This document shows, piece after piece, positions 1 to 39,111 of a stretch of DNA of 64,000 bases. Source of the DNA: a virus. Position 1 is the stretch's first letter. Each line of letters begins with the position of its first letter. The stretch spans positions 32,001 through 96,000 of the IMG/VR virus record IMGVR_UViG_3300045684_000009; one strand, given 5' to 3'. The position numbers and the translations under genes are program-made. The notes under the pieces were generated by a model. That model was not told the origin of the DNA, made no database searches, and saw only the letters and a list, made by a program, of their open reading frames with translations.

Positions 1-1731
1 GACATGTGTCCTATAGTAACTCCTACTCAGAAAGAAGACGACTGTGTCATTATAGGTGGTACACCTGCGTCTACAGTTGTTTCTAACTTAACAGAAGAAT
101 GCGATGTTGTGGGAGACCCATTAGACTTGTGTGCTCCTTTATTGGTAGCATTAGCAGGTAAACCTGAACTTTGTTTGGCTTGTAGAGAGACAAACGGAGC
201 ACCTGAAGTATATTGTACTTGTACAGGAAATGAAGAATGTTTTGAAATTGATGGAGCATACCAATGTTGTGAAGAAACAACTTGGACTCCTGCGATTGAC
301 CCTTCATTGGTTTGCGATACAGTGTCTATTACAGAAACATCTAATTGCGGAACGACAAGAATGACATTTGGAACTAAGAGTTCTACAGAATATACCCTGT
401 TACAAATCGCAGAAGACGTTTGTTCAGGAGAAGTTATTTATGAACAAAACGAATGTGGAGACGCTAGAGTGTCTGCTATTGTAGGTACTAAAGATTGTAC
501 AGAACAATGTGATTGCGAGGATACAGTTTGGACACCTGACGTAGACGTTATGTGTTTAGGCGAGTCGTATTATCAAACATCTAATTGCGGAAACAAACGA
601 ACTGCAGTCGGTACATATGAGCCACAATGTCCACCACTTGATAACTTCTTTGAAGGAGTCGAAGTATTAGATTACTGTGGTAATTCGTGTGGAGAAGGTA
701 CTAAATGTGTACCAGGCGGAGACACTCTTTGTGAAAATGAAGCAGCATGTAATAATGGACAAATAGGACCATGTATATTCCCTAACTCAGGTGAATGTTT
801 GGATTGTGACGGTTTAACTACTTGTGCAGGAAACGAAATATGTGTTGGTGGAGATTGTGTACAAAATACTGAAGATTGTACTGACGATTGTTATGAAGAA
901 AATGGTTTATCAGAACCGTGTGTTACATTGATAGCAAATGATTGTGATCTCCCTGCTGCTGTAACTTGTGGAGACCCATTAACTTCAGCTAGTGGATGTC
1001 ATGAATGTATGGGAACAGGAACAATGGCTGATGCCCTTCAAGTAGAAGACCCAGGTGATAAACCTTGTGGAGAAGATTTACTTGACCCTTGTGGAAATGT
1101 AATAACCGTTGGCGGTGGAACAGGTCCAAACCCTAGTGGTTTAAATCCTGCAGATTTCGCTTGTGGAGATGACGTTGTAGATGGTTGTGGTAATGTGATT
1201 ATTGTAGGTGGAGGTACTGACGGTGTTGGTGACGCTTGTGATGATTTAGATGATTGTACCGAAGGTTCAACTATCCAATCTGATTGTAATTGTGGTGGAG
1301 GAACACCAATAGCTCCTGATGATACTTGTGCAGCTACAACTTGTATAGATGAAACTTGTTTAGATGATTGTGGAAATGTAATTGACGGAACACAAGAACC
1401 TGTGATAGGTGATTTGACTGGTGCAGGAGATGCGCAAGTAACACCTTTAATATTTGGTACATTCCCTAACGGTACATACAATTTAGACTTAACTGCGAGA
1501 TTAACATGTAAATGTGATGCGGTCACTTTCCCAATAACTACTACCAACTTACAGATACTTGACGACCCTAGTAATTTTATAGGAACAGGCGTAGTAAGAA
1601 TGACAATAGATGGTGTAGGTGGTTTAGAGATAGTAGTTACAGGACCATTAGTTTCTGGTGATTTAGTGTTCTCTATAGATGTAGAATGCGGAGGTGTGAT
1701 AACCACTGTGTATTTCCAAATTAGCATATAA
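1..1731 (+). CDS. Cys-rich repeat structural protein (probably 5'-truncated by the window edge)
   Basis: The frame is open from position 1. Very high Cys/Asp/Gly content, with repeated C..WTP..C..SNCG..R..GT and CG...D.CGNVI..GGGT modules and a beta-rich C-terminal domain. Lies in the virion module. Confidence 0.7.
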   Translation, partial: DMCPIVTPTQKEDDCVIIGGTPASTVVSNLTEECDVVGDPLDLCAPLLVALAGKPELCLACRETNGAPEVYCTCTGNEECFEIDGAYQCCEETTWTPAIDPSLVCDTVSITETSNCGTTRMTFGTKSSTEYTLLQIAEDVCSGEVIYEQNECGDARVSAIVGTKDCTEQCDCEDTVWTPDVDVMCLGESYYQTSNCGNKRTAVGTYEPQCPPLDNFFEGVEVLDYCGNSCGEGTKCVPGGDTLCENEAACNNGQIGPCIFPNSGECLDCDGLTTCAGNEICVGGDCVQNTEDCTDDCYEENGLSEPCVTLIANDCDLPAAVTCGDPLTSASGCHECMGTGTMADALQVEDPGDKPCGEDLLDPCGNVITVGGGTGPNPSGLNPADFACGDDVVDGCGNVIIVGGGTDGVGDACDDLDDCTEGSTIQSDCNCGGGTPIAPDDTCAATTCIDETCLDDCGNVIDGTQEPVIGDLTGAGDAQVTPLIFGTFPNGTYNLDLTARLTCKCDAVTFPITTTNLQILDDPSNFIGTGVVRMTIDGVGGLEIVVTGPLVSGDLVFSIDVECGGVITTVYFQISI

Positions 1732-1746
1732 TAAAAATAATATAAA

Positions 1747-3633
1747 ATGAGTGATTGTAAATCATTTGACTTAGTAAAAAACGGACAAGTTTTCACGTTT
1801 GAATATGACTTTAAAGTTCCTGAAAATGTGATACTTGAGGATGCGGAGCTAACAGCCTCCGTACCCTCTGGGTTATCGTTGGTGGGGGCTTACTACTTCA
1901 TAGCGGGCAAACCTTCTGACACAATGACTGCTACAGTAAACGGTGCTGTGGTTTCTTTTGGTAATCTAAAAGAAGGATGTTACGTAGTTAGAGTTAAATA
2001 CTCAGTTACAAATAAGAATGCAGTAGTTTGTCCTATTAATTTTAATAGTGAATTTACGTATATTAATTGTGGAGCAGCTCCTCAAATATTCACTTCATAC
2101 GCTTGTTGTAATTCGTGTTTGGATATTTTAGATTGCTCAGATGCTGTTGCAATATTTTATGATAACACTTATAATGTAACACCTACTGGTAGTGATAGTA
2201 CAGGAGAGAGGGGTTTTTTAAACTACCCTTTCAAAACTATACACGGAGCGAATACTGACTTAGCTGTAGAGGATGGTGACCACTTTATTATTAATAAAGG
2301 TGAATATTATCCAGTTATTGTTGCGAGTGGTAGTAATAGAAAAGATGTATTAGGCGGTGACGCTAATAATGTATCTTATCATATTGTGCCAGGAACAATA
2401 ATAAGCACTTCAGGAAATGTTACTTACGGGCTATTTACAGATGTAGATGAGCAAGCAGTGTTGACTCCTGTTAATCCTTCTTTCTATAAAGTGGAAGCGC
2501 CTTATACAGAGTTGTCATCGGGCGTAACAGAGGATTTACCTATACTGATAGGTATGTATCATGAAGACTCTGAATTTTCAGGAACTTTTGGAACATTAAG
2601 CCAAGAGTATGCTGGAAGAAGTTGGTTTGTACAAACTAGTTCACAACATTTTGATCTAAAAGCGGATAGATTCATAGGTGGTTCTGGAGATGTTGTTGTC
2701 TCTTTCAGCTCTGTACCTGGATATGTTGCAGATGGTAGATATAACAATGTTGAAGTAGATTATATTGAGACTAGGGGCGATAGCAGTGTAAGTAGAGGGG
2801 CTTTAAGAACTCAATTTACCAAAACAGATAATATTCAAAATTCTACATTCAAAATAAATGTAGGAACATTACATCAGAAAAGCGCAACATCCACTGTTCA
2901 GGGTTCAATCTTGATAAGTGATAGTGCGATAGGTACAGGAAGTGTTATTGATATAGATGTAGACAAAATTATAGATGAAACTCCTGCAACGGCTTTTGGA
3001 GATACATCAGGTCCAGACAGTGATGGAATAGGTAGTATACTTATAGCAGGACTTGATACAGTAGATGCTGACCCATTGGGTGGTATAGAATACACTAATA
3101 TAAGAGTTGGAAATATAACAACAAATAAGTGTCTAATTTATTTCCCTTCTATCTCGGTCAACCCTGGTGAACATATAGAAAATATAAATAAGATTATAAA
3201 CTTAGACGTAAGTGGTGTCACAACTGATGGAAACTGTGTTAAGTTCACAGGTAGCGGTACATCTAATAGGAAGTTGACAAACACCAAAATACTTATTACA
3301 GGAGATATGATGTCAGAAGGTGCTAAATGTATAAACCTATCAGACATAGATTTAGACGTTGATTCTGAAATCAGATTCAAAAACTGTAGATTTGAAACTC
3401 AATCCATAGGAGACCCCGTAGTAATAATTGATAACGTAATAGGTGCAGGGGCTGATAATATCATTTTTGAGAATTGTATATTTATAAATGACGGGGTTAC
3501 TGAAACATTTGAAGCTACGGATGCCATCCCTCATAATATAAAAATTATAAATTGTTATGCTAATTCATTAGCAATTGATGCTAACGTTACAGAGCAGGTT
3601 GAAGCAGTGGTGAGAGACACTAACGTAATATAA
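1747..3633 (+). CDS. Tailspike/depolymerase-like protein (N-terminal Ig-like domain plus right-handed beta-helix)
   Basis: GSDSTG..G.LNYPFKTI.GA motif typical of the start of pectin-lyase-like beta-helices. I/V/N/D-rich strands with FKNCRF, FENCIF and IINCYAN rungs. Confidence 0.65.
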   Translation: MSDCKSFDLVKNGQVFTFEYDFKVPENVILEDAELTASVPSGLSLVGAYYFIAGKPSDTMTATVNGAVVSFGNLKEGCYVVRVKYSVTNKNAVVCPINFNSEFTYINCGAAPQIFTSYACCNSCLDILDCSDAVAIFYDNTYNVTPTGSDSTGERGFLNYPFKTIHGANTDLAVEDGDHFIINKGEYYPVIVASGSNRKDVLGGDANNVSYHIVPGTIISTSGNVTYGLFTDVDEQAVLTPVNPSFYKVEAPYTELSSGVTEDLPILIGMYHEDSEFSGTFGTLSQEYAGRSWFVQTSSQHFDLKADRFIGGSGDVVVSFSSVPGYVADGRYNNVEVDYIETRGDSSVSRGALRTQFTKTDNIQNSTFKINVGTLHQKSATSTVQGSILISDSAIGTGSVIDIDVDKIIDETPATAFGDTSGPDSDGIGSILIAGLDTVDADPLGGIEYTNIRVGNITTNKCLIYFPSISVNPGEHIENINKIINLDVSGVTTDGNCVKFTGSGTSNRKLTNTKILITGDMMSEGAKCINLSDIDLDVDSEIRFKNCRFETQSIGDPVVIIDNVIGAGADNIIFENCIFINDGVTETFEATDAIPHNIKIINCYANSLAIDANVTEQVEAVVRDTNVI

Positions 3634-5209: not shown

Positions 5210-5219
5210 TAAATAAATA

Positions 5220-8594: not shown

Positions 8595-9521
8595 ATGTCT
8601 TGTAAGACAAAACTTATATCAGAAGAGTACGAATTTACTTCAAAAGAGGAAAACAACCCTTGTTTTTGTGGAAGATCAAACTGTAAAGATGTATGTTATT
8701 CTTTTGATTACAAAGAGTTAGATGACTTGCAATATTCTATAAAGAATACAGTTTGTAAATTAGGCAGAAAAAAGATAGATAACTTATTTTGGGGGTACGG
8801 TTGTGAAGAAGATATAGATGTAAAAGTAGGTAAACTTAGAATACTAGATCAAGTAGTAGAAAGATACAAGACTGGTATATATTATGAAACGGCTGGTTGT
8901 TTATGCGCGTCTCAATTTCAAGATATAAAAGAACAAGTTATAGATTTGGTAGATGTGATTCCATGTGATATTGATTGTCGATTGGATTTAGGAATATCTG
9001 ATGAAAACTTGGCTCAACATATAATGGATGGTAACACTTGTATATCTTATGATAGATATGAGAAGTTTGCTAAACAATTGTGTCAAGATTTAAATATAAC
9101 ACTGACTAGTACTAAAGAGATTTGCGATTTAACATTATCGTTATCTGCAGATATAATAAGTTGTGACGTTTTGTTTGCAATAAAAGTGTATAAACAAATG
9201 TGCGACCTAGGTTACAGCGTCTCTAGAAATATAGATGAGTGTAAACTTGATTGGACGCTATTGCTAGAAAAAACTGATTGTAATTTAGATTTTGATTTAT
9301 ACAAAGAGTTAATAGATTGTAATTTAAGTTACGATATAATAAAAGAAATATATAGTTGCGGCTTGGAGTTAGAAGTTATTAACAATAACCCCGAACTAGT
9401 AACACCAATAGGTCGATATAAACTTTTTAATCTCGCTGAGAATAAATATGAAATATTGACAAAATACGGATTAGAAACAATATTAAAAGAAGAGGATTTA
9501 ACCTCTGATTACTGTAAATAG
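8595..9521 (+). CDS. Cys-rich structural protein with a 13-aa periodic Cys repeat
   Basis: Seven Cys at exact 39-nt spacing (9123 to 9357). Lies in the virion module. Confidence 0.65.
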   Translation: MSCKTKLISEEYEFTSKEENNPCFCGRSNCKDVCYSFDYKELDDLQYSIKNTVCKLGRKKIDNLFWGYGCEEDIDVKVGKLRILDQVVERYKTGIYYETAGCLCASQFQDIKEQVIDLVDVIPCDIDCRLDLGISDENLAQHIMDGNTCISYDRYEKFAKQLCQDLNITLTSTKEICDLTLSLSADIISCDVLFAIKVYKQMCDLGYSVSRNIDECKLDWTLLLEKTDCNLDFDLYKELIDCNLSYDIIKEIYSCGLELEVINNNPELVTPIGRYKLFNLAENKYEILTKYGLETILKEEDLTSDYCK

Positions 9522-17899: not shown

Positions 17900-18486
17900 T
17901 TTATATTTTATGTTTATTTGTTTTAGTAAGTTGTGCCGATAAACAAGCAGTAGATACTGTAGAGTTTGAGGATATGGCTTTCGATTATGCGGTGAACGGA
18001 TTTGACTCTAATGAAGAATTAGATGAAAGTTTGTTGATGCTGTATGATATGGCAAATAAATTACCAATAGATTATATATTTATACATTGTGCCGCAACAC
18101 CAGAAGGATTTGACGCTGATGCTGCGTTTTTTGAAAGAGTGTGGGAGAGTAGAGGTTGGAGGAATCCAGGATACCACATTATAATTCGATTAGACGGCTC
18201 TATTATATGGGCAGGAGATATAGAATGCGACGGTTTGTCATGGGATAATATAAGAAATGGAGTGAAAGGTAAGAACACTAGGTCGTTCCATATATCGTAT
18301 GTGGGTGGTGTAGATAAATATAGACGACCAAAAGATACAAGAACTCCTGAACAAAAACAAACTTTAAAGAATTCAGTAGACATACTTAAAATGTTATATC
18401 CAGATGCTGAAGTGTTAGGTCATAGAGACGCACCAGGTGTGAATAAAGCATGCCCTAGTTTCTCAGTAAAAGATGAATACAATTAG
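17887..18486 (+). CDS. N-acetylmuramoyl-L-alanine amidase (T7 lysozyme-like endolysin) with lipoprotein signal
   Basis: IFIHCAAT, GYH, ISYVGG, GHRD and KACPSF motifs. The likely start at ATG 17887 gives MRILIYILCLFVLVSC (lipobox LVSC). Confidence 0.85.
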   Translation: MRILIYILCLFVLVSCADKQAVDTVEFEDMAFDYAVNGFDSNEELDESLLMLYDMANKLPIDYIFIHCAATPEGFDADAAFFERVWESRGWRNPGYHIIIRLDGSIIWAGDIECDGLSWDNIRNGVKGKNTRSFHISYVGGVDKYRRPKDTRTPEQKQTLKNSVDILKMLYPDAEVLGHRDAPGVNKACPSFSVKDEYN

Positions 18487-29100: not shown

Positions 29101-29642
29101 AAAACCCTGACATACAATTTACAGATAGACCTTTGGGTGCGTTTGATACAGCACTCGGTAACGTGCGAACAGCTAGACAGACTTTACCTAATCAAGTGTT
29201 CTCAAGAAGTTTGAGACAGTTAGGTGATATATCTGGTTTATTAGATAGGGGCGTATCGATGAACGGAATTCAGTCTTTATATAATAGAGCAATTCAAACG
29301 GGATCAGATGCCGCATTGAGTACTAATTTAAACTTGTTAGGTCAAGAGAACAACTTATTGTTAGGAAAACAAGCAGGAGTTGCGGGTAACGTTGCAGGAC
29401 AAGATAACAAAGCCAACGTAGGTACAACAAATAGAAATAATCAATTGGCGGGTATAGGTACTCAATTTGGACAGTATACTAACAACCAAGGTAACTTAAA
29501 TAGTGCTTTAGCTAATTCTCAAATAAGAGCGATGTTAGCCAAAGAACAACAGCAGTCTTCTGCTATTCAAAGTGGAGCACAAAATCTATTTAACTTAGGA
29601 AACATAGACGCACTAAGTTCTATACTTGGAATGTTTAGTTAA
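26145..29642 (+). CDS. Virion cargo/ejection protein 1
   Basis: Directly follows the muzzle gene. Repeated [YFM]xxGG motifs, Gly/Ala-rich hydrophobic segments, an SHE...LPEG.YV.S domain and a Q/N-rich tail. Confidence 0.65.
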   Translation: MATQRKKKIKKYQKGSNVYSSKGQPNIVPNTDGIYVLGHEPLKYPPNTTPDKVALANLESFSLNGYHDLGMFDQPSIAKWISSLPPEERYLFEKDRKGYIAKNFDNFKKSLPSSEKQPDPTFRNEFNRGKGALEKLYGKANYIPVSDNGLEDRLSEIPEGANVMFMDHSGSHLFGVPRQDFYSMLSKKNPKTCIGGSCSLGHFIPDNVQEKIGHGTIINDAFFQSQFPNTNVILDKTKWDGFKPELSGINSIIGVDAKTPQYIYQQGGQMKNKKQQGGFGDIFTQNPNMFGSFTQDLLNDNKGLDFAANMPEFNIGGSDLLGDVKLPAQLGILANQFLGINELSNDGREAAFNNRLSSPDYLRQFTVSPSIGPLNYLQGGGPASPINSRSSVTDQAGYLTSNLNNFTPQKVIQGSGGQTNITTNGMAFPIFANGVPLQPNSGNYIFNGNEVLETPMRQGGEVPKMFLGGLWDGIKSVGKGVADAALTPFGGGNLIESGFDKIPVLSDALGFFGDSTLGAFDGATNLFGFDILKDGAFNTGLGKSVYSNADNLASMAAPAVGGALFGPLGSQGASALQSLGHGITGGPQTSANQGYAGTPGFNPNTGGMGNVMGGLSQLIPLLQMFTKLQGYKEGGSVFRGRQTDLAMPLTKFNQAGNIGLGGLIGAFPEGVPIQTEKFDKIPEQIIFGNAMIANVNAHDSHEDMVKDGNSDMVTDMLPEGAYVTSAYGGIKIRKKKAEDFVVGIKIHPYHENQKGLLPERMTVADVFPKKVDELTPAELSNEIKKKFEVRDRVDIFGNATNEINLESRKPYLQFLIQESEEQKMKKEMASQKRKATNAINKVAKEIGVDKAELKAAFGFRKGGKVVKKDVVKAQNGVYATPYSGLQPLSTNLYSLPSPQFSVPETAPYAHVNGPSQGFSINNLLGQVEQSLPFVGQSLGIVGNTRDFLRAPGVENTINNIQGGLFNQNSQLNQANLLGNIGAIIAQNPDIQFTDRPLGAFDTALGNVRTARQTLPNQVFSRSLRQLGDISGLLDRGVSMNGIQSLYNRAIQTGSDAALSTNLNLLGQENNLLLGKQAGVAGNVAGQDNKANVGTTNRNNQLAGIGTQFGQYTNNQGNLNSALANSQIRAMLAKEQQQSSAIQSGAQNLFNLGNIDALSSILGMFS

Positions 29643-29660
29643 TAAGAAAGTAAGCAAATT

Positions 29661-32462
29661 ATGATAGACTTTAAAGATTACGTAAATTATCCTTTACAAC
29701 TCTTCCAAAATGGAGGTTTAACAACCTTCAATATTGGAAACGAAGCACCCACCAACGGGTTAGCTGCGCAGATGGCGGCTAACATTCCAATAGCACCCAT
29801 CGTACAAAATCCTTTAGATATCTCTAGTTCATTTAGAGATAGAACATTGGATTTACAAGAAGATGCTTTTTCGTATAGAAAGACTAAAGACATCATGGAC
29901 TTTACTTCTAAGCTATATGATAAAGTGGGAAAAGGTGTAGCTACGTCTACAAGTGACGCTACAGGTTTGTATCTCCCTATATATGGAGAAGATGAAGCCC
30001 AGTTTAACAAGACGTATGGTGAGATGCAGTCTAACATGACGAATGCTATGTTTTCAGGTGACACACAGACAGCAATAAAATTGTTTAATGAGTTAAATCA
30101 ACTACCCAAAAGTAGGAACTTTAGAGTGGCGGGTGAAAATAGTGCGATATTAAATTCCATAACCAACTTTAAACCTGAGTTAAAGACTGGTCAAGCATTC
30201 GATACTCAAGGAGCTTTAAGTTTTTCTAAGAAAGCTGAAGATTGGTTAAGACAAGATGATAATAAGTACAGGTCGTTGACTGATTTTATGCGACAAGAAG
30301 GAGTTAGTAATTTAGAAGACTTCGTGTATAATGAGAATGAGGCTGTAAAAGAAATAGACACATATATAAAAGCAGATGCTGACTTCGAATATAGACAATT
30401 AATGGCTGAGTCCATTGGTGGTAATCCTGCATTAGCTGAATTAAGAGAGAGGTTAGTAGACGGTGGAGACATATCTTCACAAGATTTAGCTAAATTCCTT
30501 ATGTCAAATGGAACTACAAAGCAACATATTGCTAACACAATTGGTGGTGGAGAAAAAGGTTTAACTAAATACATCGATCAAAGAAGACAAAACACTACTA
30601 TAAATGAAAAACAACTCAACAAAGTCATAGATGTAGCTACAGAACTTAATCCTCAACTATATGAAGTGGAGGTTGATGGTAAGAAGTATGAGGTGAAGTT
30701 GGATGCGTTAGGTCGAATAGTAGAAGATAGGGTGGAGACAATAGGTAATATTGAGCAAGCCGAAGCCGAGTTTGGTTTTGACACTCAATTAGCTACTCAG
30801 AAAAACGAAGCGGCGGTTCAGTTAGAAAAAGAGAAGACAACTAGAAAAGCTACAAAACAAACATACGAAGCTAATAGAACTTCTTCAAGTAAAAATACAT
30901 ATGAAACTATAAATAATTCTGGACTAGTTGATAATGAGCTAGATGCCGATTCAATGTCTAAAGATATGTTGAATGCGTATGAGGATGGGAAAGAGATGGA
31001 TGTATTGTTTGCTGAAATAGTAGAGACATATGAAATAGAGGGCGACGAAGCTAAAAAAGAATTAGCAGACACTATAGAAAAGACTTATAGAAACTATAAA
31101 TCTAATGGTCTTGAGGCGGGTATTAATAAAATAGAACCTATTAAAGAATCAACAAGTACCGACTTTATAAAACCTTCGGGAAATGAGATATTAGATATGG
31201 GTGAATTGTTCCATAAAATTGAAAGCCCTAATAAAGGTTTTGGAGCTACCAATGATGAAACAACAGCTTTAGGTAATTGGCAATTCTTATACACTGACTT
31301 CAGAGACCAAATATCGGCAGCTATAGACGATAGAGGTTTGGAGTGGGAAGGTATACAACTTACAGATGAAGAGGAGGATTACTTCAGAACTAATAACATA
31401 TGGGGTTCGGCTAAACGACGTAAGGCTAATAATCTTACAGAGGATGATAAGAAGAAAGCTGCGGCGTTTTTAAGAAGCCCAGAAGCTCAAAAAGACTTAT
31501 GGGGAAGTAATTACGAAGAATATAAATCAAACTTACCACAATTAAGAGAGTTAGACACTGAAGGTAAATACAGTGATGCTCAACTTATGTATATGTTACA
31601 TCACCAAGGTACATTAAAGTCAGCTAGTGAATTTATCAAAACAGGTAAATCTCCTATAACGGCTGCAGGTAGAAATATAACTAATGAATTAAATAGAGCA
31701 TTATCTAAGATGGCTAAGGTTTCTAGTAATAGTGGTTTTACAGGGTTTATAGATGAGGACGGTATGAGTAGAGGTTCTAGTGATACCGTAACTCCACAAA
31801 CAGAGTTTGATCCTAGCATATATTACGATATAGATTCGAAAACAACTCTTACAGAACCAACCTCTGTTGACCAAGGTTCTACAACAGAACCTGTAGATTC
31901 TACATCTGAAGTTGCACAAAGTCAACCACAATCTCGATTGGAGAAAGTATTAACAGATACTCAAGAAGAAAGAACTCAGGTATTTGGAGAACTGGCTACA
32001 TTAGACACCGAAATAGGTAAATATGAGGAAGTTATAAATACATTACCAGACACCGACGAGTTTGGTAGAGACAACCAAGAGAAAATAGACTTATTAGAAT
32101 CGCGAAGACAAGCAATCAATAAAAAACTATCTAAAGAGAGAGCTTTTGAAAGGCTTAATAAGAAGAATGACGGTGCGTTTACTGAAATGAATGACAGAGA
32201 AGAGGTCGCTAATTTAATCATAGAGAAGATGGGTCAAGTAGGTCCAGGAAAAGAACATGAATTCGATGAAGTAAGGCGAGTGTCAGGTAACGCCAAAGTT
32301 AGAGGTAATTTAAAAGTAAGAATGTCATCAGATGGTGAGACTTATGTAATTACAGCAGGTCAAGGTAGAGTCACAAATCCTAAAACAGGTGGCGAAGTAT
32401 TTAACAAAACAGATCTTGTTGATTATTTAAGAGTGGCGGATGATATTAAATTAAAAAAGTAA
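29661..32462 (+). CDS. Virion cargo/ejection protein 2 with lysozyme-like domain
   Basis: Largely helical. Contains IES..GF.A.N..TTALGNWQF...YMLHHQG, resembling lysozyme/transglycosylase folds. Confidence 0.6.
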   Translation: MIDFKDYVNYPLQLFQNGGLTTFNIGNEAPTNGLAAQMAANIPIAPIVQNPLDISSSFRDRTLDLQEDAFSYRKTKDIMDFTSKLYDKVGKGVATSTSDATGLYLPIYGEDEAQFNKTYGEMQSNMTNAMFSGDTQTAIKLFNELNQLPKSRNFRVAGENSAILNSITNFKPELKTGQAFDTQGALSFSKKAEDWLRQDDNKYRSLTDFMRQEGVSNLEDFVYNENEAVKEIDTYIKADADFEYRQLMAESIGGNPALAELRERLVDGGDISSQDLAKFLMSNGTTKQHIANTIGGGEKGLTKYIDQRRQNTTINEKQLNKVIDVATELNPQLYEVEVDGKKYEVKLDALGRIVEDRVETIGNIEQAEAEFGFDTQLATQKNEAAVQLEKEKTTRKATKQTYEANRTSSSKNTYETINNSGLVDNELDADSMSKDMLNAYEDGKEMDVLFAEIVETYEIEGDEAKKELADTIEKTYRNYKSNGLEAGINKIEPIKESTSTDFIKPSGNEILDMGELFHKIESPNKGFGATNDETTALGNWQFLYTDFRDQISAAIDDRGLEWEGIQLTDEEEDYFRTNNIWGSAKRRKANNLTEDDKKKAAAFLRSPEAQKDLWGSNYEEYKSNLPQLRELDTEGKYSDAQLMYMLHHQGTLKSASEFIKTGKSPITAAGRNITNELNRALSKMAKVSSNSGFTGFIDEDGMSRGSSDTVTPQTEFDPSIYYDIDSKTTLTEPTSVDQGSTTEPVDSTSEVAQSQPQSRLEKVLTDTQEERTQVFGELATLDTEIGKYEEVINTLPDTDEFGRDNQEKIDLLESRRQAINKKLSKERAFERLNKKNDGAFTEMNDREEVANLIIEKMGQVGPGKEHEFDEVRRVSGNAKVRGNLKVRMSSDGETYVITAGQGRVTNPKTGGEVFNKTDLVDYLRVADDIKLKK

Positions 32463-32469
32463 GTAAGTA

Positions 32470-35400
32470 ATGAACGAAGAATTATTACAATTAATATACG
32501 ACAATGAAGGTTTTGAAGATAGAGGTGTCAGCTTTGATAAGTTTAAAACTGACATGTCTAACCCTGAACTACAATCTTTAATATTTGAGAAAGCTGGTTT
32601 TGAAGATAGAGGTATAAGCTTTGATAAGTTCCAACAAGACTTAGGAATGTCTCAACCTCAACCAACACAAATTGCAGAACCTAAAAAGGAACTCACAGCA
32701 AAGGAGAGAATGAGAGCGTTGGTCAACCAAGGTTCTGAAACAGAAGTAGAGGGTGAAAAGGATATAAACAATCCTTTAAAATCTTTTGGTAAGAGTTTTT
32801 ATAATTCAGCAGTGTCGTTACCTTCTCAAGTTATAGATGGTATAGATATACTTAGTAATCAAGGAGCGATGGGTATTATAAAAGGGGCTAAGGTTTTGGC
32901 AGACGTGATAGGTGCAGAAGATACTTCTGAATTCTTAGAAGAGTCTATAGGTCGTGGTGAAACAATGAAACAAGTTACGTTAGATAGAATGCTCGAAAGT
33001 GCGAACAAGCGATCAGAAGCTAACGAAGGGCTTACTAAATCTATTAGAGACGTGTTTGATGACGACCCTTTAATAGATAACATCATAGATGGAGTGAATT
33101 TAGTGGCGGGTTTTGCAGGAGATGCTTTACCTACGATAGCAGCAAGTGTTCTATCATATGGTACAACGGGTTTTGCTCAAATGACTACAGAAGGTTACAC
33201 TAGTGCTGTGATGGCTAAAGCAGAGGTGTTAGGTATAACCCCCGAAGAAGTTATAGATCAAGGTTTAGATCAAGACGCTTTAATAATCTCTATGGCTGCA
33301 GCAGGTGCTGCGTTAGAATTCTTAGGTGCTAAAGGTGTGGCGAAACAAGCTATGAGTAATTTATCTAAGAAGAGTTTCACAAACGAAATTAGAAAAAGAG
33401 GAAAAGGATTCCTTAAGAGTCCTGTTAACATAGAGGGTGTCACGGAAGCAGCTCAAAACTTATTAACATCTATATCTACAGCAGCAGAGTCAGGTCAAGA
33501 ACTAGACGAAAACTATTTTAGAGAATTAGGTATAGACTCTGTAGATGCGTATATTGGTGGTGCATCAGGTGCGGCAGGTGCTAACGTTATAACTAGTCAA
33601 TTAGGAAAGTTAAATCAGAAGTTGTTTAAACAAGGTACTACTGCACAAGCTGTATCAGAAGCTGCTCCTAATTTATCACAAAAAGACCAAGATAAAATAA
33701 TAGATTTACAAACAGAGTTAGAAACGTTAGAAGATAACGACACTGAAGCTGGAAAACTACGTAAAGCTGAATTAAAGAATGAAATCAAAAGTATACAATT
33801 TCCTGAAGAAGATACTACTAAGCAGACTGAGAAGTCGGATGCGGTGGTAAAAGACAAACCTAAGAAAAAGACAGATACCAAGACGAAGATACCAGACTTA
33901 ACTGATGACCAATATAACACATTTGTAGATACAGGTGATGCCTCACAAGATATAGTAGACGGTATCGCTGCAAAGATTGCAGATGATGCTCCACTCACAG
34001 ACCGTGAGAGAGCCGTACAACAAGCTAAAGGTGTAAACATAGAAGAAGCTCTCCAAGCTGTAAAAGACCGAGACGTAGCTTCTGATGACCTCTCAACGCC
34101 TGTTGTAGAGCCAATTGAAACATCTGAGGCGGGATTAAAGGTTCAATTTAAGAAATTCTTCTCTTCTAGAGCGAAAGGTAAAGAGAAATCAGGTATTAAA
34201 AGCGAACAAGACGTTGAAAACAACGCTTCTTTTGCAGCTACAATACTTAGAGCTGTAGCTGAAACTAGAGCAAAGCAATTAGGTATCACTCCTGAAGAGT
34301 ATATATCTAATACATTTAGCGGTGGAATAGGAAAGATGAAAACATCAGACATCGATGAGGCTCAATCTAAAAAGCAAAGTGATGACGACATAATTACGTT
34401 CACTAAACCTTTAAATGGTGAGTTATATTCTAAGAGTAAAGAGTCTGAGTTTGAACAAGTACCTGTAAAGTTAGGTGACATAGGTGTTGAACAAACATCG
34501 TCACCCGATGACGGGGGTAGGTCCACGTATACTATAAAAGCAAAAGACCAAGAACTAGGTACAATAGAAGTGTTAGAAGATGGTGACACTGTTAGAATAG
34601 ATTTATCTAATCTGTTAGGTACAGTATATGGTAAAGGTGATAATGTAATAAACCTCGCCAACACACTAGCTAAGGCGGCGAAACACACTAAACTAAAATT
34701 AGATAAACTAGGTAACACATTAACTACTGTAACTGCAGACACTTGGGTGACTGGTAATCTAAATTCAGGAAAAGGTATAGGTAAGAAAGCGTATATCGAT
34801 TTAGGTAACAAGTTAGCACTAGAAGGTGTAACCTTACAGTCAGATAGAGAGGGTAGTAGAAGCGACGCTGCTAACGCTATGTGGAACAACCTCGTTAAAG
34901 ACGGTAAGGCTGAATTGATTGATGATACTTATAATACACCCGACGGTGTAAAGAAAACAAATAGATATCAATTCATACCAGATGATGGTGGTATTAATAA
35001 CATACAAGATGCGGTAGAGTACTTAGATAGAAGAATACCTGAATTAGAGAAGCAAGGTGCTAACAAGTCGCGAATAGCTAGATTGAAGGAGTATAGAAAT
35101 GCTTTAGATAAGGATTCTAAGTTCCAAAACGACAACTCAATAAATAGAGGTGCGGTTGTAACTTTGGCTAATATGGATTTGTTAATAACGTCATTAGAAC
35201 AACCTAATGCTTTTACAGCTATCCACGAATTCTTTCATGGGTTTATGAAGGATGCTACACCTGCTGAAAAGCAATTATTCGTAGATGAATATAATAAATC
35301 GTTTAAACCTACGGATAAAAGAGAGTTAGCTAAAAGCTTTAAGAACAGAGATGTTGAAGAATTTGGAGCTAGAATGTTTGAGAAATACATCGGTAACGGT

Positions 35401-38400
35401 AGAGTTGTTGATGGTAGATTGAATGCAGAAAAGAAAGCTAGATTCCAACAAATATTTGATGCATTCTCTGAATGGATGGGTGATGTATACAATCGTATTA
35501 TAACGTACACAAATAAAAAAGGACAAACTGCGGAGGTAAAAGTATCTCGTGAAGTTAAAGACTTATTTGATAATCTTTTAAATATAAAAACAAATGTCAA
35601 AATCAAAAATGACCAAAAACCCAAAAGGAGCAACAATGACCAAAGGGTTCGGGAAACGCAAGAAGAAGATGATGGGCAAATCTCCGAAGATGAGATAGTA
35701 AATGATGGGGATCGAGTAAGATCCCCCACTCAAAAGACTATAAACAATGCAGATGCCCCTACTCAAAGTGATGAGGAGTTCTTAAAAAACTTAGATGAAG
35801 TGTATCACTCTGATAAGTCTATAAATAGAGAGATAAACTCCACCATAAAGTCGATGGGTTCTGCGGGGTTCACCAATATTGAATCTTTATCTTTTTCGAA
35901 TGCTTTAAAAGAAGCAGCCAAAGCTGGTAGAATAAGCCCTGACGGTTCTAAAGAGCGTCAGATAGCTCATGATGTGTTAGATGGTGCAGGTGTAGATGAG
36001 TTTGATGAAATCGCTTTACAATTTGCTCTAGCTAATACTCAGAGAAAATTAGTAGAATATATAGGTGAGGCACAGTCGTTACCAGATGTTAACGCTGAAT
36101 TATCTCAAAAGATATTAAGTACCAGACAAGATTTAGATATATTTAATTTAGCCTTACATAGAAGTGGTCAAATTGGTGGTAGAGTTCTTAGAATGCGTCA
36201 GGTTTTATTAAACGATCTTAACAGTTTGGGGTCTATGATTTCTAAGATTGAGTCATCTTCTATACCTGTGAATCAGAAGAAAGCATTGAGAGATTTAGCT
36301 AACAAAATCGATCAAAATTCTAAAGACATTCAACAAAAAGTGTCAGATTCTACAGATACAATTAGGTCCAAAGCTAAATCTGAAACAGGTAAGTTTATTA
36401 AAGAAAATAAGAAGTCATCAAAAAGAGCTAACAAAGACGCTAGAACCAACTTTAAAGATAAGTTTTCTAAAAAGAACGATAAGAAGGGAAAAGGAGATGT
36501 TAAGTTTTCGCAAGATGGTTATGACAATGGTTCTTCGTCAATTGTCGAGTATGCAAAGTATTTAATCAAAAGAGATTTAAAACTTACAGACTTGAATAAA
36601 TTAGCAATAGGTAAATCTATAGATATAGGTAAAGATGATTTTAAAAAGGTGGAAAGTAATAAATTCATAGATTCTGAAGGTTCTGAATTTAGTACTAAAC
36701 AGTTGGCTAATAAGATTAAAAACTATAATAAAAAAATAGAGACTATTGAAGGTGTGGTGGACGAGATATTACAAACATACAACCAACTACCTAATAAAAA
36801 TCCTAACTTCATAGTAACAAGAGACGATATACTTCTTAGTATGTCTAACGGGATTAATCAGAACATACTTAAATCTAGAGAAAGGCTTACCAAGGATTTA
36901 ATTGAATTAAGAAAGATAAACTTACAACTCACTAAACTTAAGAATAGTGTGGAGGGCGTGGTTACTCAAGCTAAGGCTAAAAAGATAATAGACTATTCTA
37001 AACCTTTATCTGATCTTAAAGCTGCAGTGAAAGCTATCAACAGTGTATACACTAATAAAGACAAGTTGTTTTCAATGTCTGAAGATGAAAAAGGTAGGGT
37101 TGCTGAAATGACAGCAGAAATATCTAGGCTATATTCTGCAATATTTATGAACGATGGTGCGGGTATAACAGATGACCAAGTCAAACAACTAATGAGTATA
37201 GCTAATAATCTAAATCACGACAAGAAGATTGATAGATTAACTAAAAAGAGAGATAGCTTACTTGATGGTAGTTACACACCACCAAAACAAAGAACTAAGA
37301 AACGAGTAGAAGACGACGATATAGCGCAACTTATCGATCAAAACATCGAATTGAGGGGTGAATTTATGGACAAACTTAGGAGAGCAGAAGTTTATTATTC
37401 AATACTTGTTGAAGAGATAAAGGCTGTAGATCCTGATAACCCTACTGAAGCTGAAATTAAGAAGGCTAACTGGGTGTGGGATAAGAAGATTCTATTTAAC
37501 TTTAGGAACTGGTTTGAAGGTTTTAGAACTTATAAGTTGGGTCTCGATTTCTCATTTGGGTTTATGCAAGGTGGTCCTATGATTTTTAAAACTTTAGCTG
37601 AGAATACTGCAGGTAGAGGTGTAGATATAGTCACAGGTCGAGATAGGTTTACTACTAGAGGTAGTTTGAACTATGAAGGGTTGAAAGATGCGTTACATAA
37701 AGCTGTATCAATTGGGTTGAAAGCAGGTTCTGATAGAAACTTAGATGCTGCTGTGGATGATTACAAATCTCTTATGACTCTATCTTCAAATAGATTAGGT
37801 AAAGCTATGGGTGTTAAAATGGAGAAACCTGGACATAGTAACGATGATATGTTTAAAGGTAGGACTGCAGCAGACTTTATAAGTGACACGCCTGTATTAA
37901 AATTCATGAAAGTTATAGCATCAACGTTTGAGAATTTCTCAGAGGCTAGTTATACTGTATTTATTAACAGACTTGCGGCCACCCAATGGAACACATTTCT
38001 TAAAGTAAATGAAAATGCGTCTGTTGAGGAAATGAAGGAATACGCAAAAGTTATAAATAACAATGTAGGAAGGTCTAATCTTAAAGTTACTGGTCCTATG
38101 AGTGATATAATATTAGCTCCTCGATTTTACACATCTAGGATTCACATGTTAGCAGAACCATTTAAGGTGTTAGGTAGAGGTATAAAAAAGAAGGGTAAAT
38201 TAAATCTTGCAGATAAAGAAAGACTTAGAGATTTAACATCTACTGTTACAGGTTATACAGCGTTGATAGCGTTGATGGCAATGGGTGGATGGGATTATGA
38301 AGAAGACCCAAGAGCTAAAGGGTTTGCTAAATTCAAAAAAGGAGATGAAACTATAGATTTTACTGCTGGAATGGGTAAGTGGGCAGATGTAGCTGTTAAG

Positions 38401-39111
38401 TCTTTGGCTTTTACAGATTCAATATCTGGTGTTGAGGCTTTTAGTAAGTTGTTTGGTGAGAGACTAAAATCAGAAGAGTTCAATAAATTTACAGACGCAC
38501 CTTTGACATTAGGTCTTAGAAAGATAGGAACATCGCTTAACGTACCATTTTTATGGTTAAACTCGTTAATGACAAATGAAAACGTAATTGGTCAAAACTT
38601 AGGAGTAGAGTGGTATCAGAGATTACCTAACACTATAGTTGCTGCAATATCTCCTATTGTTTTTCAAGACTTTATTACAGATGCTATTAATCAACCTTTA
38701 GATGAGAAATATCCATCCCCATTTTGGGCGAAAGAATATAGTAATACTTTATCTATCTTAGGTATAGGTCATATAGATTATGAAAATAACTTAAAACATA
38801 TACATGTTATAAAACATTTAGATAAGTTAGAAATATCACCCGATAGGTCTATTGACAGAAGTGTTGTTACTAAAAGAATACCCGAAGTAGATAAGGCTAG
38901 TTTTAGAAACGAAGCTATTATAGACAACGCTAAAGCTGAAATAAAACACGCAGTTGGTAGTAGAATATTGGCGGACTTAAATAAAGGTAAAAACCCAAGT
39001 AAAGAAGTTATAGCTAAATATACAAAAGATGAGGCAACTAGAATTCTAAGAATATATTCAAAACACTACGGTCTTAAGTTCAACTCATCAGGTAAAGCTA
39101 AGAAGAAGTAA
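32470..39111 (+). CDS. Large polyvalent ejection protein (GNAT-like and zincin HExxH domains)
   Basis: 2213 aa. GKGIGKKAY...LQSD...SDAANAMW (GNAT-like), TAIHEFFH...EEFGARMFEKY (zincin), and a C-terminal APRFY.SR...DPR...F.K.K.G region of the kind seen in phage internal virion proteins. Confidence 0.65.
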   Translation: MNEELLQLIYDNEGFEDRGVSFDKFKTDMSNPELQSLIFEKAGFEDRGISFDKFQQDLGMSQPQPTQIAEPKKELTAKERMRALVNQGSETEVEGEKDINNPLKSFGKSFYNSAVSLPSQVIDGIDILSNQGAMGIIKGAKVLADVIGAEDTSEFLEESIGRGETMKQVTLDRMLESANKRSEANEGLTKSIRDVFDDDPLIDNIIDGVNLVAGFAGDALPTIAASVLSYGTTGFAQMTTEGYTSAVMAKAEVLGITPEEVIDQGLDQDALIISMAAAGAALEFLGAKGVAKQAMSNLSKKSFTNEIRKRGKGFLKSPVNIEGVTEAAQNLLTSISTAAESGQELDENYFRELGIDSVDAYIGGASGAAGANVITSQLGKLNQKLFKQGTTAQAVSEAAPNLSQKDQDKIIDLQTELETLEDNDTEAGKLRKAELKNEIKSIQFPEEDTTKQTEKSDAVVKDKPKKKTDTKTKIPDLTDDQYNTFVDTGDASQDIVDGIAAKIADDAPLTDRERAVQQAKGVNIEEALQAVKDRDVASDDLSTPVVEPIETSEAGLKVQFKKFFSSRAKGKEKSGIKSEQDVENNASFAATILRAVAETRAKQLGITPEEYISNTFSGGIGKMKTSDIDEAQSKKQSDDDIITFTKPLNGELYSKSKESEFEQVPVKLGDIGVEQTSSPDDGGRSTYTIKAKDQELGTIEVLEDGDTVRIDLSNLLGTVYGKGDNVINLANTLAKAAKHTKLKLDKLGNTLTTVTADTWVTGNLNSGKGIGKKAYIDLGNKLALEGVTLQSDREGSRSDAANAMWNNLVKDGKAELIDDTYNTPDGVKKTNRYQFIPDDGGINNIQDAVEYLDRRIPELEKQGANKSRIARLKEYRNALDKDSKFQNDNSINRGAVVTLANMDLLITSLEQPNAFTAIHEFFHGFMKDATPAEKQLFVDEYNKSFKPTDKRELAKSFKNRDVEEFGARMFEKYIGNGRVVDGRLNAEKKARFQQIFDAFSEWMGDVYNRIITYTNKKGQTAEVKVSREVKDLFDNLLNIKTNVKIKNDQKPKRSNNDQRVRETQEEDDGQISEDEIVNDGDRVRSPTQKTINNADAPTQSDEEFLKNLDEVYHSDKSINREINSTIKSMGSAGFTNIESLSFSNALKEAAKAGRISPDGSKERQIAHDVLDGAGVDEFDEIALQFALANTQRKLVEYIGEAQSLPDVNAELSQKILSTRQDLDIFNLALHRSGQIGGRVLRMRQVLLNDLNSLGSMISKIESSSIPVNQKKALRDLANKIDQNSKDIQQKVSDSTDTIRSKAKSETGKFIKENKKSSKRANKDARTNFKDKFSKKNDKKGKGDVKFSQDGYDNGSSSIVEYAKYLIKRDLKLTDLNKLAIGKSIDIGKDDFKKVESNKFIDSEGSEFSTKQLANKIKNYNKKIETIEGVVDEILQTYNQLPNKNPNFIVTRDDILLSMSNGINQNILKSRERLTKDLIELRKINLQLTKLKNSVEGVVTQAKAKKIIDYSKPLSDLKAAVKAINSVYTNKDKLFSMSEDEKGRVAEMTAEISRLYSAIFMNDGAGITDDQVKQLMSIANNLNHDKKIDRLTKKRDSLLDGSYTPPKQRTKKRVEDDDIAQLIDQNIELRGEFMDKLRRAEVYYSILVEEIKAVDPDNPTEAEIKKANWVWDKKILFNFRNWFEGFRTYKLGLDFSFGFMQGGPMIFKTLAENTAGRGVDIVTGRDRFTTRGSLNYEGLKDALHKAVSIGLKAGSDRNLDAAVDDYKSLMTLSSNRLGKAMGVKMEKPGHSNDDMFKGRTAADFISDTPVLKFMKVIASTFENFSEASYTVFINRLAATQWNTFLKVNENASVEEMKEYAKVINNNVGRSNLKVTGPMSDIILAPRFYTSRIHMLAEPFKVLGRGIKKKGKLNLADKERLRDLTSTVTGYTALIALMAMGGWDYEEDPRAKGFAKFKKGDETIDFTAGMGKWADVAVKSLAFTDSISGVEAFSKLFGERLKSEEFNKFTDAPLTLGLRKIGTSLNVPFLWLNSLMTNENVIGQNLGVEWYQRLPNTIVAAISPIVFQDFITDAINQPLDEKYPSPFWAKEYSNTLSILGIGHIDYENNLKHIHVIKHLDKLEISPDRSIDRSVVTKRIPEVDKASFRNEAIIDNAKAEIKHAVGSRILADLNKGKNPSKEVIAKYTKDEATRILRIYSKHYGLKFNSSGKAKKK
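32509..32630 (+). repeat. 35-bp imperfect direct repeat within the CDS (32509-32543 and 32596-32630)
   Basis: ggttttgaagatagaggt(gtc/ata)agctttgataagtt, encoding a duplicated GFEDRG.SFDKF peptide. Confidence 0.8.

Follow-up and report, generated by a model that had tools for sequence, protein, structure and literature searches.

Cysteine-rich putative tail appendages and nearly cysteine-free putative cargo proteins in an uncultured crAss-like phage

The disulfides of phage tails known so far are a few inter-subunit staples. Poxviruses and other large eukaryotic DNA viruses make the disulfides of their virions with cytoplasmic oxidases of the Erv family. Among the closest described systems is the Bacteroides phage PhicrAss001 (crAss001), where disulfides stabilise the tail barrel and the fibre hubs (Bayfield et al. 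2023, PMC10172136). A disulfide-stabilised crassvirus tail is therefore already published; new are the scale and the type of module described below. In the cyanophage Pam3, disulfides tie the tail fibres to the baseplate wedge, and the fibres are detached by DTT (PMC9942802). Pam3 resembles the phage analyzed here as a tailed phage with cytoplasmic assembly and functional (here putative) disulfides in the host-recognition apparatus. This myophage has few inter-subunit bonds at one interface, whereas the present phage is a podophage-like crassvirus with hundreds of Cys in putative intra-domain repeat modules.

Genome and arrangement of the Cys-rich genes

The window, the whole stretch of 64,000 nucleotides that was analyzed, comprises positions 32,001 to 96,000 of IMG/VR record IMGVR_UViG_3300045684_000009. 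It originates from the complete genome (~134 kb) of an uncultured crAss-like phage, which belongs to an uncultured clade of crAss-like phages with genomes of ~120-138 kb. The assignment to a Crassvirales type is based on a Crass-type major capsid protein (Pfam Crass_capsid 5.6e-36; phmmer matches to the capsid proteins of FpV4 and crAss001) and on both paralogous tail ring proteins and the muzzle, each above the Pfam cut-off. Most of the 190 ORFs remained without an assigned family in Pfam and PHROG scans, and 23 were common to the present phage and its relative G001. The order-level architecture is that of crAss001 (Crass capsid, ring 1, ring 2, muzzle, then cargo genes).

Table 1. Features of the window, their cysteine content and supporting matches
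Position	Strand	Feature	Cys	Match or remark
1..1731	+	C-terminal 576 aa of 959-aa ORF		ORF starts upstream of the window
1747..3633	+	628-aa protein	14 (2.2%)	Cys mainly within N-terminal 130 residues
3654..8554	+	Cys-poor tail-fibre cassette, 5 ORFs, 1605 aa		PHROG tail-fibre and tail-protein matches
8595..9521	+	308-aa Cys-rich protein	21 (6.8%)	Just upstream of giant gene
9529..14589	+	Giant 1686-aa putative appendage protein	108 (6.4%)	
14615..16702	+	695-aa orphan	32 (4.6%)	
17102..18486	+	M43-type metallopeptidase-like ORF, then N-acetylmuramoyl-L-alanine amidase (lysis)		Between appendage and ring genes
18640..19362	+	Tail ring protein 2	7 (2.92%)	Pfam CrAss_Ring_2 2.6e-15
19830..20891	+	Tail ring protein 1	9 (2.55%)	Pfam CrAss_Ring_1 3e-21
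20891..26173	+	Muzzle protein	45 (2.56%)	Pfam crAss_MUZ 3.7e-23
26145..39111	+	Three large cargo-position proteins (1165, 933, 2213 aa)		Directly downstream of muzzle gene

The Cys-rich proteins sit where tail appendages are encoded. In all 12 related IMG/VR viral loci the Cys-rich block adjoined the capsid and ring-like genes on their downstream side, and in G001 it likewise followed these genes. Within the fibre cassette the Pfam matches to Gp53-like_C and Phage_depo_C were both sub-threshold. The metallopeptidase-like ORF was recognised by Peptidase_M43 (3.6e-11), the amidase by Amidase_2 (1.7e-12) and the PHROG amidase family (3e-40). Family searches with the 628-aa protein gave no match.

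Eight Cys-rich ORFs of the structural module together contained 300 Cys in 4696 residues (6.39%), which is a strong enrichment (binomial p 5e-83) over the minus-strand background of 375 in 22,436 (1.67%, 139 ORFs). Four of these eight ORFs were located just upstream of the window (3.3-6.5% Cys). The original observation of outer structural genes loaded with Cys held for the ORFs at 1-1731, 8595-9521, 9529-14589 and 14615-16702 (4.6-9.1%). It did not extend to a uniformly Cys-rich exterior: the genes from TerL to the capsid were Cys-depleted (15/2941, 0.51%), the fibre cassette inside the Cys-rich stretch carried only 2 Cys in 1605 residues (0.12%), and the rings and the muzzle were only moderately enriched. 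Additionally, the CxxC and CC clusters originally noted for both rings and the muzzle were absent from ring 2.

Ordinary orthologues of ring 2 were about as Cys-rich as the present protein (2.22 and 3.38% vs 2.92%), which was not the case for ring 1 and the muzzle. Two ring 2 residues, C68 and C179, were invariant in all four phages compared (present phage, G001, FpV4 and crAss001) and are candidate bonded residues. The alignment of ring 1 contained no invariant Cys; here a clade-specific loop, C-x7-CPxCH-x3-C, was found. The 45 Cys of the muzzle were conserved to a decreasing degree in G001 (24), FpV4 (5) and crAss001 (2), and an acidic insert (residues 516-554) contained 10 Cys in 39 aa. Judged from their sequences, this insert and the CPxCH loop look like metal knuckles as much as disulfide knots. 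With their moderate Cys enrichment, the rings and the muzzle would continue the inter-subunit disulfide network seen in the crAss001 tail.

Cys-rich components are present in crAss001 as well, where Cys makes up 5.1% of the tail hub protein A (gp38), the cargo is nearly Cys-free and the two ring 2 Cys are shared. Its fibres gp22-26 (0.3-1.3%) and its muzzle (0.73%) differ from the appendages (4.6-9.1%) and the muzzle (2.56%) of the present phage. No homologues of the crAss001 tail hub proteins THA (gp38) and THB (gp39) were found by phmmer. When the families of the 169-aa protein, the 308-aa protein and the anchor domain were compared with gp38 by hhalign, probabilities stayed below 2%, so that gene position alone agrees. 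The virion location of the Cys-rich proteins is therefore deduced from gene position and one weak PHROG match, that of a 169-aa Cys-rich ORF to a 'virion structural protein' family (2.5e-5).

Modules of the Cys-rich proteins

The giant protein is predicted to comprise an Ig-like sandwich (residues 1-87), a Cys-rich array of EGF-like beta-hairpins of ~300 aa, a central beta region and Ig-like (Hoc/SprB-like) repeats at the C-terminus. Its AF2 model reached a pLDDT of 73.8 overall and of 80-93 over residues 80-290, where tandem beta-hairpins were predicted. Eight hairpins of the type CxxGxC were counted, and 13 CxxC pairs in the first 420 aa. All 15 homologues contained 5.4-7.4% Cys at only 24-29% identity. 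In the family alignment 54 of the 68 invariant columns were Cys, and within the N-terminal 400 aa even 29 of 32. The first 420 aa of each of the 13 family members listed carried 11-16 CxxC motifs.

The C-terminal repeats (profile positions 1222-1461) matched T4 Hoc (2.2e-7) and the phage tail protein 9c2d (2.5e-7) in a PDB profile search; a match to the Pfam SprB repeat was below its cut-off. In T4, the Ig-like repeats belong to a capsid decoration protein, here to a 1686-aa Cys-rich putative tail protein, in which they carry Cys pairs.

In Foldseek searches with the giant protein, eukaryotic tandem EGF-like arrays (Jagged, NELL2, megalin, uromodulin) ranked top, a weak lead with a best E value of 0.024. 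No fold match was significant (Foldseek, as above; VIA Z about 5, for residues 1-87 only). The best EGF-clan Pfam match was the EB module, whose 19.8 bits fell short of the cut-off (24.3), followed by weaker ones to Dickkopf_N and DUF7107; none exceeded the curated threshold, and no EGF family was returned at E values up to 10. To judge from these weak leads and the model, the modules resemble arrays of EGF-type hairpins, together with Ig-like domains. Predicted short beta-hairpins, the spacing CxxGxC and CxC, a Cys content of about 20% and an elongated rod are shared with EGF arrays. The phage proteins differ in being made without secretion, and significant sequence or fold matches were not obtained. 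The resemblance is probably convergent.

The complete 959-aa ORF contained 87 Cys (9.07%). Upstream of the window it encodes a Cys-rich N-terminal anchor domain of ~160 aa, while the part within the window contains 'W-x-P...C...CG' modules with paired Cys and hairpin repeats that are rich in Cys. Of 104 library matches to this protein, 88 had more than 4% Cys. Each of the six invariant columns other than Met in the anchor-domain family was a Cys, and six further Cys were nearly invariant. An odd number of Cys was carried by 6 of the 20 stand-alone anchor-domain proteins. N-termini resembling signal peptides occurred in 48 of 67 library proteins sharing only the mid-modules and in none of the 33 sharing only the anchor domain. 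The two-Cys 'W-x-P...C...CG' modules are otherwise used by bacteria on exported surface proteins.

The 308-aa protein showed a Cys ladder with a 13-residue period (residues 149-255) and a poor AF2 model (pLDDT 41). Its homologues in two related loci, L006 (BLASTP 2e-22) and L005, are likewise located upstream of the giant gene, an order without exception. For the 695-aa orphan the search found no homologue; its Cys are clustered at both termini, and a heptad-like segment lies between C218 and C264/C267. By the alignments, the Cys of the Cys-rich proteins are conserved structural residues.

Putative cargo proteins nearly without cysteine

In the three cargo-position proteins, exact counting returned the two Cys that had been noticed by eye (2 in 4311 aa; p 1e-28). 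By synteny only, we take these proteins as ejected proteins: their position after the muzzle gene is that of crAss001 gp45-47 and FpV4 gp30-32. The first of them has a homologue in G001 (2.7e-16). An ESM search gave a lead, and a lead only, to polyvalent-protein domains (score 0.88). Searches for a giant RNA polymerase in the cargo found no similarity by Pfam, PHROG or phmmer, and the motif scan matched neither these proteins nor the reference proteins.

It had been proposed that the cargo was selected against Cys to escape crosslinking by the exterior. The broadest form of this proposal would have the whole exterior cross-linked between subunits and the cargo depleted of Cys so as not to be caught. 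The low cargo count, the inter-subunit disulfides of crAss001 tails and the two ring 2 Cys invariant over four phages are in line with it. However, cargo proteins were just as Cys-free in crAss001 (7/7478), FpV4 (2/5617), N4 (0/4294) and T7 (1/2261), all with Cys-poor exteriors, and over the five phages compared the cargo Cys appeared to be unrelated to the exterior Cys. Furthermore, capsid genes and the external fibre cassette are Cys-depleted as well, and in the rich proteins the Cys are spaced as in intra-domain repeats. We therefore consider this coupling very unlikely. Cys-free cargo is general among such phages and thus not a response to the Cys-rich tail of the present one.

The N4 gp50-52 and T7 gp14-16 ejection proteins are large, packaged in the virion, threaded through the tail and essentially Cys-free; the three cargo-position proteins share no sequence similarity with them, and their role is assigned from gene position. 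In all six phages compared, from crAss-like, N4-like and T7-like lineages, ejected proteins had 0-0.1% Cys. This side result amounts to a simple, testable general rule on Cys in proteins which unfold to pass through a tail; a literature search on that point did not find the rule stated.

Disulfides or metal, and the proposed route of oxidation

As originally noted, the Cys-rich proteins appeared to lack signal peptides. None of the 11 Cys-rich, ring and muzzle proteins had a signal-peptide-like or transmembrane stretch in a crude hydropathy test (maximal N-terminal 10-aa value ≤1.23 against a working threshold of 2.3), which is not equivalent to SignalP. A phage-encoded oxidase as in poxviruses, also suggested at the outset, was not supported: a six-frame search of the whole genome for the thiol oxidases Erv/ALR, DsbA, DsbB and VKOR (PF04777, PF01323, PF02600, PF07884) gave no match at E values up to 10. 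The sole redox protein in the Pfam scan of the 190 ORFs was a thioredoxin of the reductase type (WCGPC); the genome also carries a class II RNR-like gene, which does not neighbour that of the thioredoxin. The problem of virion-protein disulfides versus a reducing cytoplasm is shared with poxviruses and other large DNA viruses, the difference being that no Erv/ALR homologue was found here.

The reading which we regard as the best, with a probability of roughly 0.55, is that of disulfide-stapled appendages oxidising at or after lysis. 'Disulfides formed on lysis' had been among the original suggestions, and it is favoured by the conserved Cys, by modules of the disulfide type and by the crAss001 precedent (PMC10172136). 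The Cys-rich genes would code for tail appendages along with the parts that anchor them, built of small Cys-held modules: about eight EGF-like beta-hairpins in the giant protein, Ig-like domains, the 160-aa anchor domain with its 12 conserved Cys and the two-Cys modules. The proteins, which appear to lack export signals, would be synthesised in the cytoplasm. Once oxidising water surrounds the particle, during lysis or later, the Cys would pair into mainly intra-domain disulfides, and rigid, protease-resistant fibres would result. The analysis establishes the counts, the conservation, the synteny, the lack of known oxidase families and the generality of Cys-free cargo; that the proteins are part of the virion, that their Cys pair instead of holding metal, and when they are oxidised we infer. 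Since no recognisable thiol oxidase is encoded, pairing at or after lysis is the most likely.

Metal binding would need no oxidation step at all. The conserved Cys would form Zn(Cys)4 knuckles or hold iron or iron-sulfur, and the modules would fold in the reducing cytoplasm, as is suggested by the cytoplasmic synthesis, the lack of export signals and of an oxidase, the many CxxC motifs of the giant-protein family, the motif DCxxCxxCxxGxC, the 10-Cys muzzle insert and the CPxCH loop. We judge this rather unlikely, as His is nearly missing (0.2-0.5% in the four most Cys-rich window proteins) and Pfam matches to zinc-finger or Fe-S families were missing at E values up to 10, save a Zn_ribbon_LysW fragment (E 0.22) in the 308-aa protein. 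Moreover, the matches and fold ranks obtained point to disulfide-type extracellular modules, one module type is common to exported bacterial proteins and the Ig-like repeats carry Cys pairs.

Another route would be disulfide formation before lysis within the host cell, through a phage oxidase that is not recognised as such or upon a late collapse of host thiol buffering. The many ORFs without family, the existence of several small Cys-rich ORFs and the Erv-type cytoplasmic oxidases of large eukaryotic DNA viruses would leave room for this. It seems quite improbable in view of the empty oxidase search and the reductase type of the single thioredoxin; besides, among the 23 ORFs common with G001 ring 1 was the only conserved small CxxC protein. 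More tentative than the stapled appendages as such is an extracellular maturation, in which particles leave the cell with reduced, loose appendages and become adsorption-competent only after environmental oxidation, or else the action of a thiol oxidase which is not recognised; we hold one of these to be possible. In the former case oxygen or another environmental oxidant would close possibly well over hundred disulfides per copy set.

Under the preferred reading of disulfide-stapled appendages, Cys-stapled modules of extracellular type would make up an entire, conserved group of tail proteins that totals about 4,700 aa in each genome. These proteins appear to lack an export route, and the searches found no gene for a known oxidase. 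Confirmation of this chemistry would mean that crassviruses outside the gut have rebuilt the structures with which they recognise their hosts, using modules in convergence on animal EGF arrays, that virion maturation can hinge on environmental redox, and that binding scaffolds of very high stability could be drawn from these modules. If extracellular maturation proves true, the infectivity and habitat range of the clade would be tied to redox conditions.

Cysteine content of the virion genes

On sequence grounds the window belongs to a crAss-like phage. Ring 1, ring 2 and the muzzle matched their Pfam families above cut-off, a Crass_capsid match (Pfam, 5.6e-36) was found upstream of the window, and TerL, portal and MCP matched Flavobacterium phage FpV4 and crAss001 by sequence comparison and in PHROGs. 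Cultured relatives are distant, since portal identity to the nearest of them was only ~25%. The source record is a single viral sequence of 133,828 bases, of which the window covers bases 32001-96000, and its overlapping ends are classed by the collection as direct terminal repeats. Single-protein scans of IMG/VR gave no close relatives of the MCP or of the giant protein, a 1686-aa putative tail appendage protein, and the latter had no tblastn match in 50,697 phage records. Only 23 of the 190 ORFs were common to this genome and its 124,898-base relative G001 at 1e-5.

Eight Cys-rich ORFs together contained 300 Cys in 4,696 aa (6.39%), compared with 375 in 22,436 aa (1.67%) for the 139 minus-strand ORFs (binomial p 5e-83). 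The original observation that many outer structural genes are loaded with Cys holds for the four of these that reach into the window, but the exterior is not uniformly Cys-rich: the genes from TerL to the capsid (15 Cys in 2,941 aa, 0.51%) and a mid-stretch five-gene cassette with PHROG tail-fibre matches are Cys-poor. For the rings and the muzzle it was overstated, as their enrichment is only moderate (pooled p 0.001). Based on these counts the virion genes fall into three classes, namely Cys-packed, ordinary and Cys-depleted. Gene position and one PHROG match to a virion structural protein (2.5e-5) point to a virion location of the Cys-rich proteins.

Location and Cys content of the features. 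Positions refer to the window unless a contig is given; L001 and L003 are parts of the same genome outside the window.
Feature	Position	Strand	Cys/aa	Cys (%)
243-aa ORF	upstream of window		8/243	3.3
542-aa ORF	upstream of window		28/542	5.2
94-aa ORF	upstream of window		5/94	5.3
169-aa ORF	upstream of window		11/169	6.5
959-aa ORF (whole ORF counted)	1-1731 (C-terminal 576 aa)		87/959	9.07
Five-gene fibre cassette	3654-8554		2/1,605	
308-aa ORF	8595-9521		21/308	6.8
Cys ladder, residues 149-255	9039-9359	+		
Giant protein	9529-14589		108/1686	6.4
695-aa ORF	14615-16702		32/695	4.6
Heptad-like segment	15266-15415	+		
CC-x-CC clusters	16511-16699	+		
M43-type metallopeptidase-like gene	17102-17899	+		
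Ring 2 (CrAss_Ring_2)	18640-19362			2.92
Ring 1 (CrAss_Ring_1)	19830-20891			2.55
Ring 1 loop, residues 105-121	20142-20192	+		
Muzzle (crAss_MUZ)	20891-26173			2.56
Muzzle insert, residues 516-554	22436-22552	+		
Three putative cargo ORFs	26145-39111		2/4,311	
2213-aa protein	32470-39111	+		
NAD-salvage pair	50707-53670	-		
RNA/tRNA-repair set	58291-63386; L003:79-2599, 10645-11466	-		
Matrixin/M10-type metallopeptidase-like gene	L003:6831-7778	+		
Thioredoxin (100 aa, WCGPC)	L001:7411-7713, outside window	-		

When compared with the orthologues of crAss001 and FpV4, ring 2 was ordinary (2.22% and 3.38% Cys), whereas ring 1 (0.85% and 1.86%) and the muzzle (0.73% and 1.07%) were 1.4-3.5 times richer here. 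Two ring 2 Cys were invariant in an alignment of four phages; 24 of the 45 muzzle Cys were conserved in G001, only five in FpV4 and two in crAss001. The muzzle carries an acidic insert with ten Cys in 39 residues (a CxxC/CxC/CC run), which the muzzle proteins of G001, FpV4 and crAss001 lack. Ring 1, the only CxxC-bearing protein below 400 aa common to this genome and G001, contains a C-x7-C-P-x-C-H-x3-C loop that is kept in G001 and partly in FpV4 and that may serve as a metal knuckle or as a redox-active CPxC.

Several further genes were noticed. The M43-type gene adjoins an amidase gene, and homologues of the M10-type gene lie within the tail module of the related viral contigs L022-L026, a few kb past the Cys-rich block. 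The NAD-salvage pair consists of a phosphoribosyltransferase-domain protein and a NAMPT/NAPRTase-like protein. The dense repair set comprises a poly(A)/CCA polymerase head domain, two RlaP nucleotidyltransferases, an AAA_33 kinase and T4 gp30.3-like, RNA-ligase-like and Thg1-like proteins.

Conservation of the Cys-rich proteins

Besides itself, the giant protein had 15 homologues, which are 1,504-2,097 aa long and encoded on contigs of up to 138 kb. At identities of 24-29%, all 15 contained 5.4-7.4% Cys, and in an alignment of 13 of the 16 sequences (three near-duplicates were dropped) Cys formed 54 of 68 invariant columns. When the first 400 aa were aligned with 17 relatives, 29 of 32 invariant columns were Cys. 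The 959-aa protein gave 103 non-self matches among cluster representatives; including itself, 88 of 104 exceeded 4% Cys (median 6.6%). Its N-terminal ~160 aa, here named anchor domain, are mostly found on their own, in proteins of 150-210 aa with ~10% Cys. All six invariant non-Met columns of a 21-row anchor-domain alignment were Cys, as were six nearly invariant ones; for the collection scan a 5-row subset was used since the full alignment was too variable.

The same Cys-rich set was found in G001, with proteins of 571 aa (4.6% Cys), 163 aa (5.5%) and 317 aa (8.5%), an anchor domain of 184 aa (10.3%) and a giant protein of 1,938 aa (7.9%). At all 12 IMG/VR loci found by the anchor domain, the latter is preceded by a fixed block of a capsid gene, a ~322-aa gene, a 240-aa ring-like gene and a ~540-566-aa gene with 3.6-5.3% Cys (called as 493 aa at one locus). 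A homologue of the 169-aa ORF (163-172 aa, 6.1-6.4% Cys) was called between this last gene and the anchor domain in six of the 12. Judged by the alignments, the cysteines are conserved structural residues, and conservation together with synteny makes the Cys-rich genes core tail-module genes of the clade rather than an oddity of a single genome. When the Cys-rich proteins of the phage were compared with one another, BLASTP at 1e-3 detected neither paralogy nor internal repeats.

In crAss001 the hub protein gp38 contains 5.1% Cys and the fibres gp22-26 contain 0.3-1.3%. No homology of the Cys-rich proteins to the crAss001 hub proteins was found by sequence and hhalign comparison: three families aligned with gp38 and one with FpV4 gp18 gave nothing, and gp38 and gp18 lacked a convincing alignment even to each other.

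Word-index searches returned no homologue of the 308-aa or the 695-aa protein; homologues of the former are present on the related contigs L005 and L006. The 308-aa protein carries nine Cys (149, 163, 177, 190, 203, 216, 229, 242 and 255) with a strict period of 13-14 residues, each being the first residue of a repeat unit C-[DNK]-L. The same period is seen in the L006 homologue, in which several units gain a second Cys ~6-7 residues on. This segment may form a narrow solenoid with a Cys ladder; the AF2 model of the protein, for which the alignment had 3 rows, was too poor to use (pLDDT 40.9). The 695-aa orphan has a heptad-like segment between C218 and C264/C267 as well as CC-x-CC clusters at its C-terminus, and recalls extracellular matrix proteins with inter-chain disulfide rings beside coiled coils.

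Module folds and the state of the cysteines

The AF2 model of the first 400 aa of the giant protein (pLDDT 73.8; 80-93 over residues 80-290) starts with a beta-sandwich, after which short two-stranded hairpins are strung together; eight CxxGxC motifs (4-8 in the listed relatives) coincide with the hairpins. Foldseek gave nothing at E <= 0.001 with this model, and the best-ranked entries, led by Jagged2 (0.024) and followed by megalin, NELL2, Delta-like 1, integrin I-EGF and uromodulin, were tandem-EGF proteins. VIA-align found an Ig-like sandwich (Z about 5) confined to residues 1-87. Permissive Pfam searches yielded disulfide-type modules only, all below cut-off (EB at 8e-4, DUF7107, Dickkopf_N). 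In PDB profile searches the C-terminal repeats matched T4 Hoc (2.2e-7) and a phage tail protein (2.5e-7), and the anchor-domain family had a single match, to an EGF-family protein (E 0.16).

In agreement with the original observation, a crude hydropathy test showed no signal-peptide-like or membrane-spanning stretch in any of the 11 Cys-rich, ring and muzzle proteins tested. The mid-modules of the 959-aa protein (W-x-P...C...CG) are all that 67 of its 103 non-self relatives have in common with it. A signal-peptide-like N-terminus was present in 48 of these 67 and in none of the 33 anchor-domain-only relatives, and some of the former bear Ig, cadherin, TSP1 or T9SS sorting domains. This difference between the two groups is the strongest indirect argument that the phage would re-use disulfide-type extracellular modules without export.

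We would favour, at a probability of about 0.55, that cysteine-stapled modules make up the appendages and their anchors and that their cysteines would oxidise at or after lysis. Binding of metal by the conserved Cys would solve folding in the cytoplasm and is in line with the abundance of CxxC pairs as well as with the muzzle insert and the CPxCH loop of ring 1. However, His is lacking (0.2-0.5% in the four most Cys-rich window proteins), no zinc or Fe-S family was matched and the modules are linked to exported ones, so that we regard metal binding as unlikely. An unrecognised oxidase, or oxidation inside the cell, appears more doubtful still. The phage-encoded oxidase originally proposed was not recovered: six-frame searches with E up to 10 gave no match to Erv/ALR, DsbA, DsbB or VKOR, and the sole redox-family protein in Pfam scans of all 190 ORFs of at least 50 aa was a thioredoxin with a reductase-type canonical site and no counterpart in G001 at 1e-5. 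Of the ORFs with a counterpart in G001, ring 1 was the only conserved small CxxC protein. The genome also encodes, at another place, a class II ribonucleotide reductase-like protein.

Putative cargo proteins and known phage tails

The three large ORFs downstream of the muzzle gene are nearly Cys-free as first noted, with exactly two Cys, both in the first ORF (p 1e-28). They are labelled as cargo by gene position, one G001 homologue and a weak ESM lead, which is to polyvalent-protein domains. For the 2213-aa protein the ESM features gave leads (score 0.88) to clusters with the 'polyvalent protein' domains LPD38/LPD39 and MuF_C, and no RNA-polymerase signature was found in it. Scanning the cargo proteins for a DxD[GA]D motif gave no information, as the crAss001 and FpV4 references also lack the motif.

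The corresponding proteins of five comparators contained 14 Cys in 27,310 aa (0-0.1% in each): 7/7,478 in crAss001 (gp45, 46, 47, 49, 50), 2/5,617 in FpV4 (gp30-32), 0/4,294 in N4 (gp50-52), 1/2,261 in T7 (gp14-16) and 4/7,660 in the four ORFs after the muzzle gene of G001. Since crAss001, FpV4, N4 and T7 have Cys-poor exteriors, the depletion is not a response to the Cys-rich tail here. The original coupling, in which the exterior is cross-linked and the cargo selected against Cys for that reason, is contradicted by these phages and is the least probable reading. A Cys content of 0-0.1% may instead be a general rule of ejected or internal, tail-threaded virion proteins; plausibly, stray cross-links would be too costly for proteins that must unfold to thread through a narrow channel. 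The words 'cysteine' and 'disulfide' do not occur in the N4 ejection-protein paper (PMC13434306). The literature searched, which leaves out ~1.7 million PMC articles and most subscription journals, yielded no statement of such a rule and no description of Cys-rich phage appendages like these or of EGF-like Cys-rich tail fibres.

In crAss001 disulfides are described as stabilising the tail barrel and the fibre hubs, and the portal-vertex protein gp57 as forming a disulfide-linked dimer (PMC10172136). The relevant precedent found in the literature on Cys-rich or disulfide phage tail fibres is cyanophage Pam3, whose fibres are reported to be tethered by disulfides and released by DTT, so that disulfides are able to tether fibres in a phage (PMC9942802). 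Disulfide-stabilised phage tails are already known, and the Cys-packed putative appendages found here would be a variant of them.
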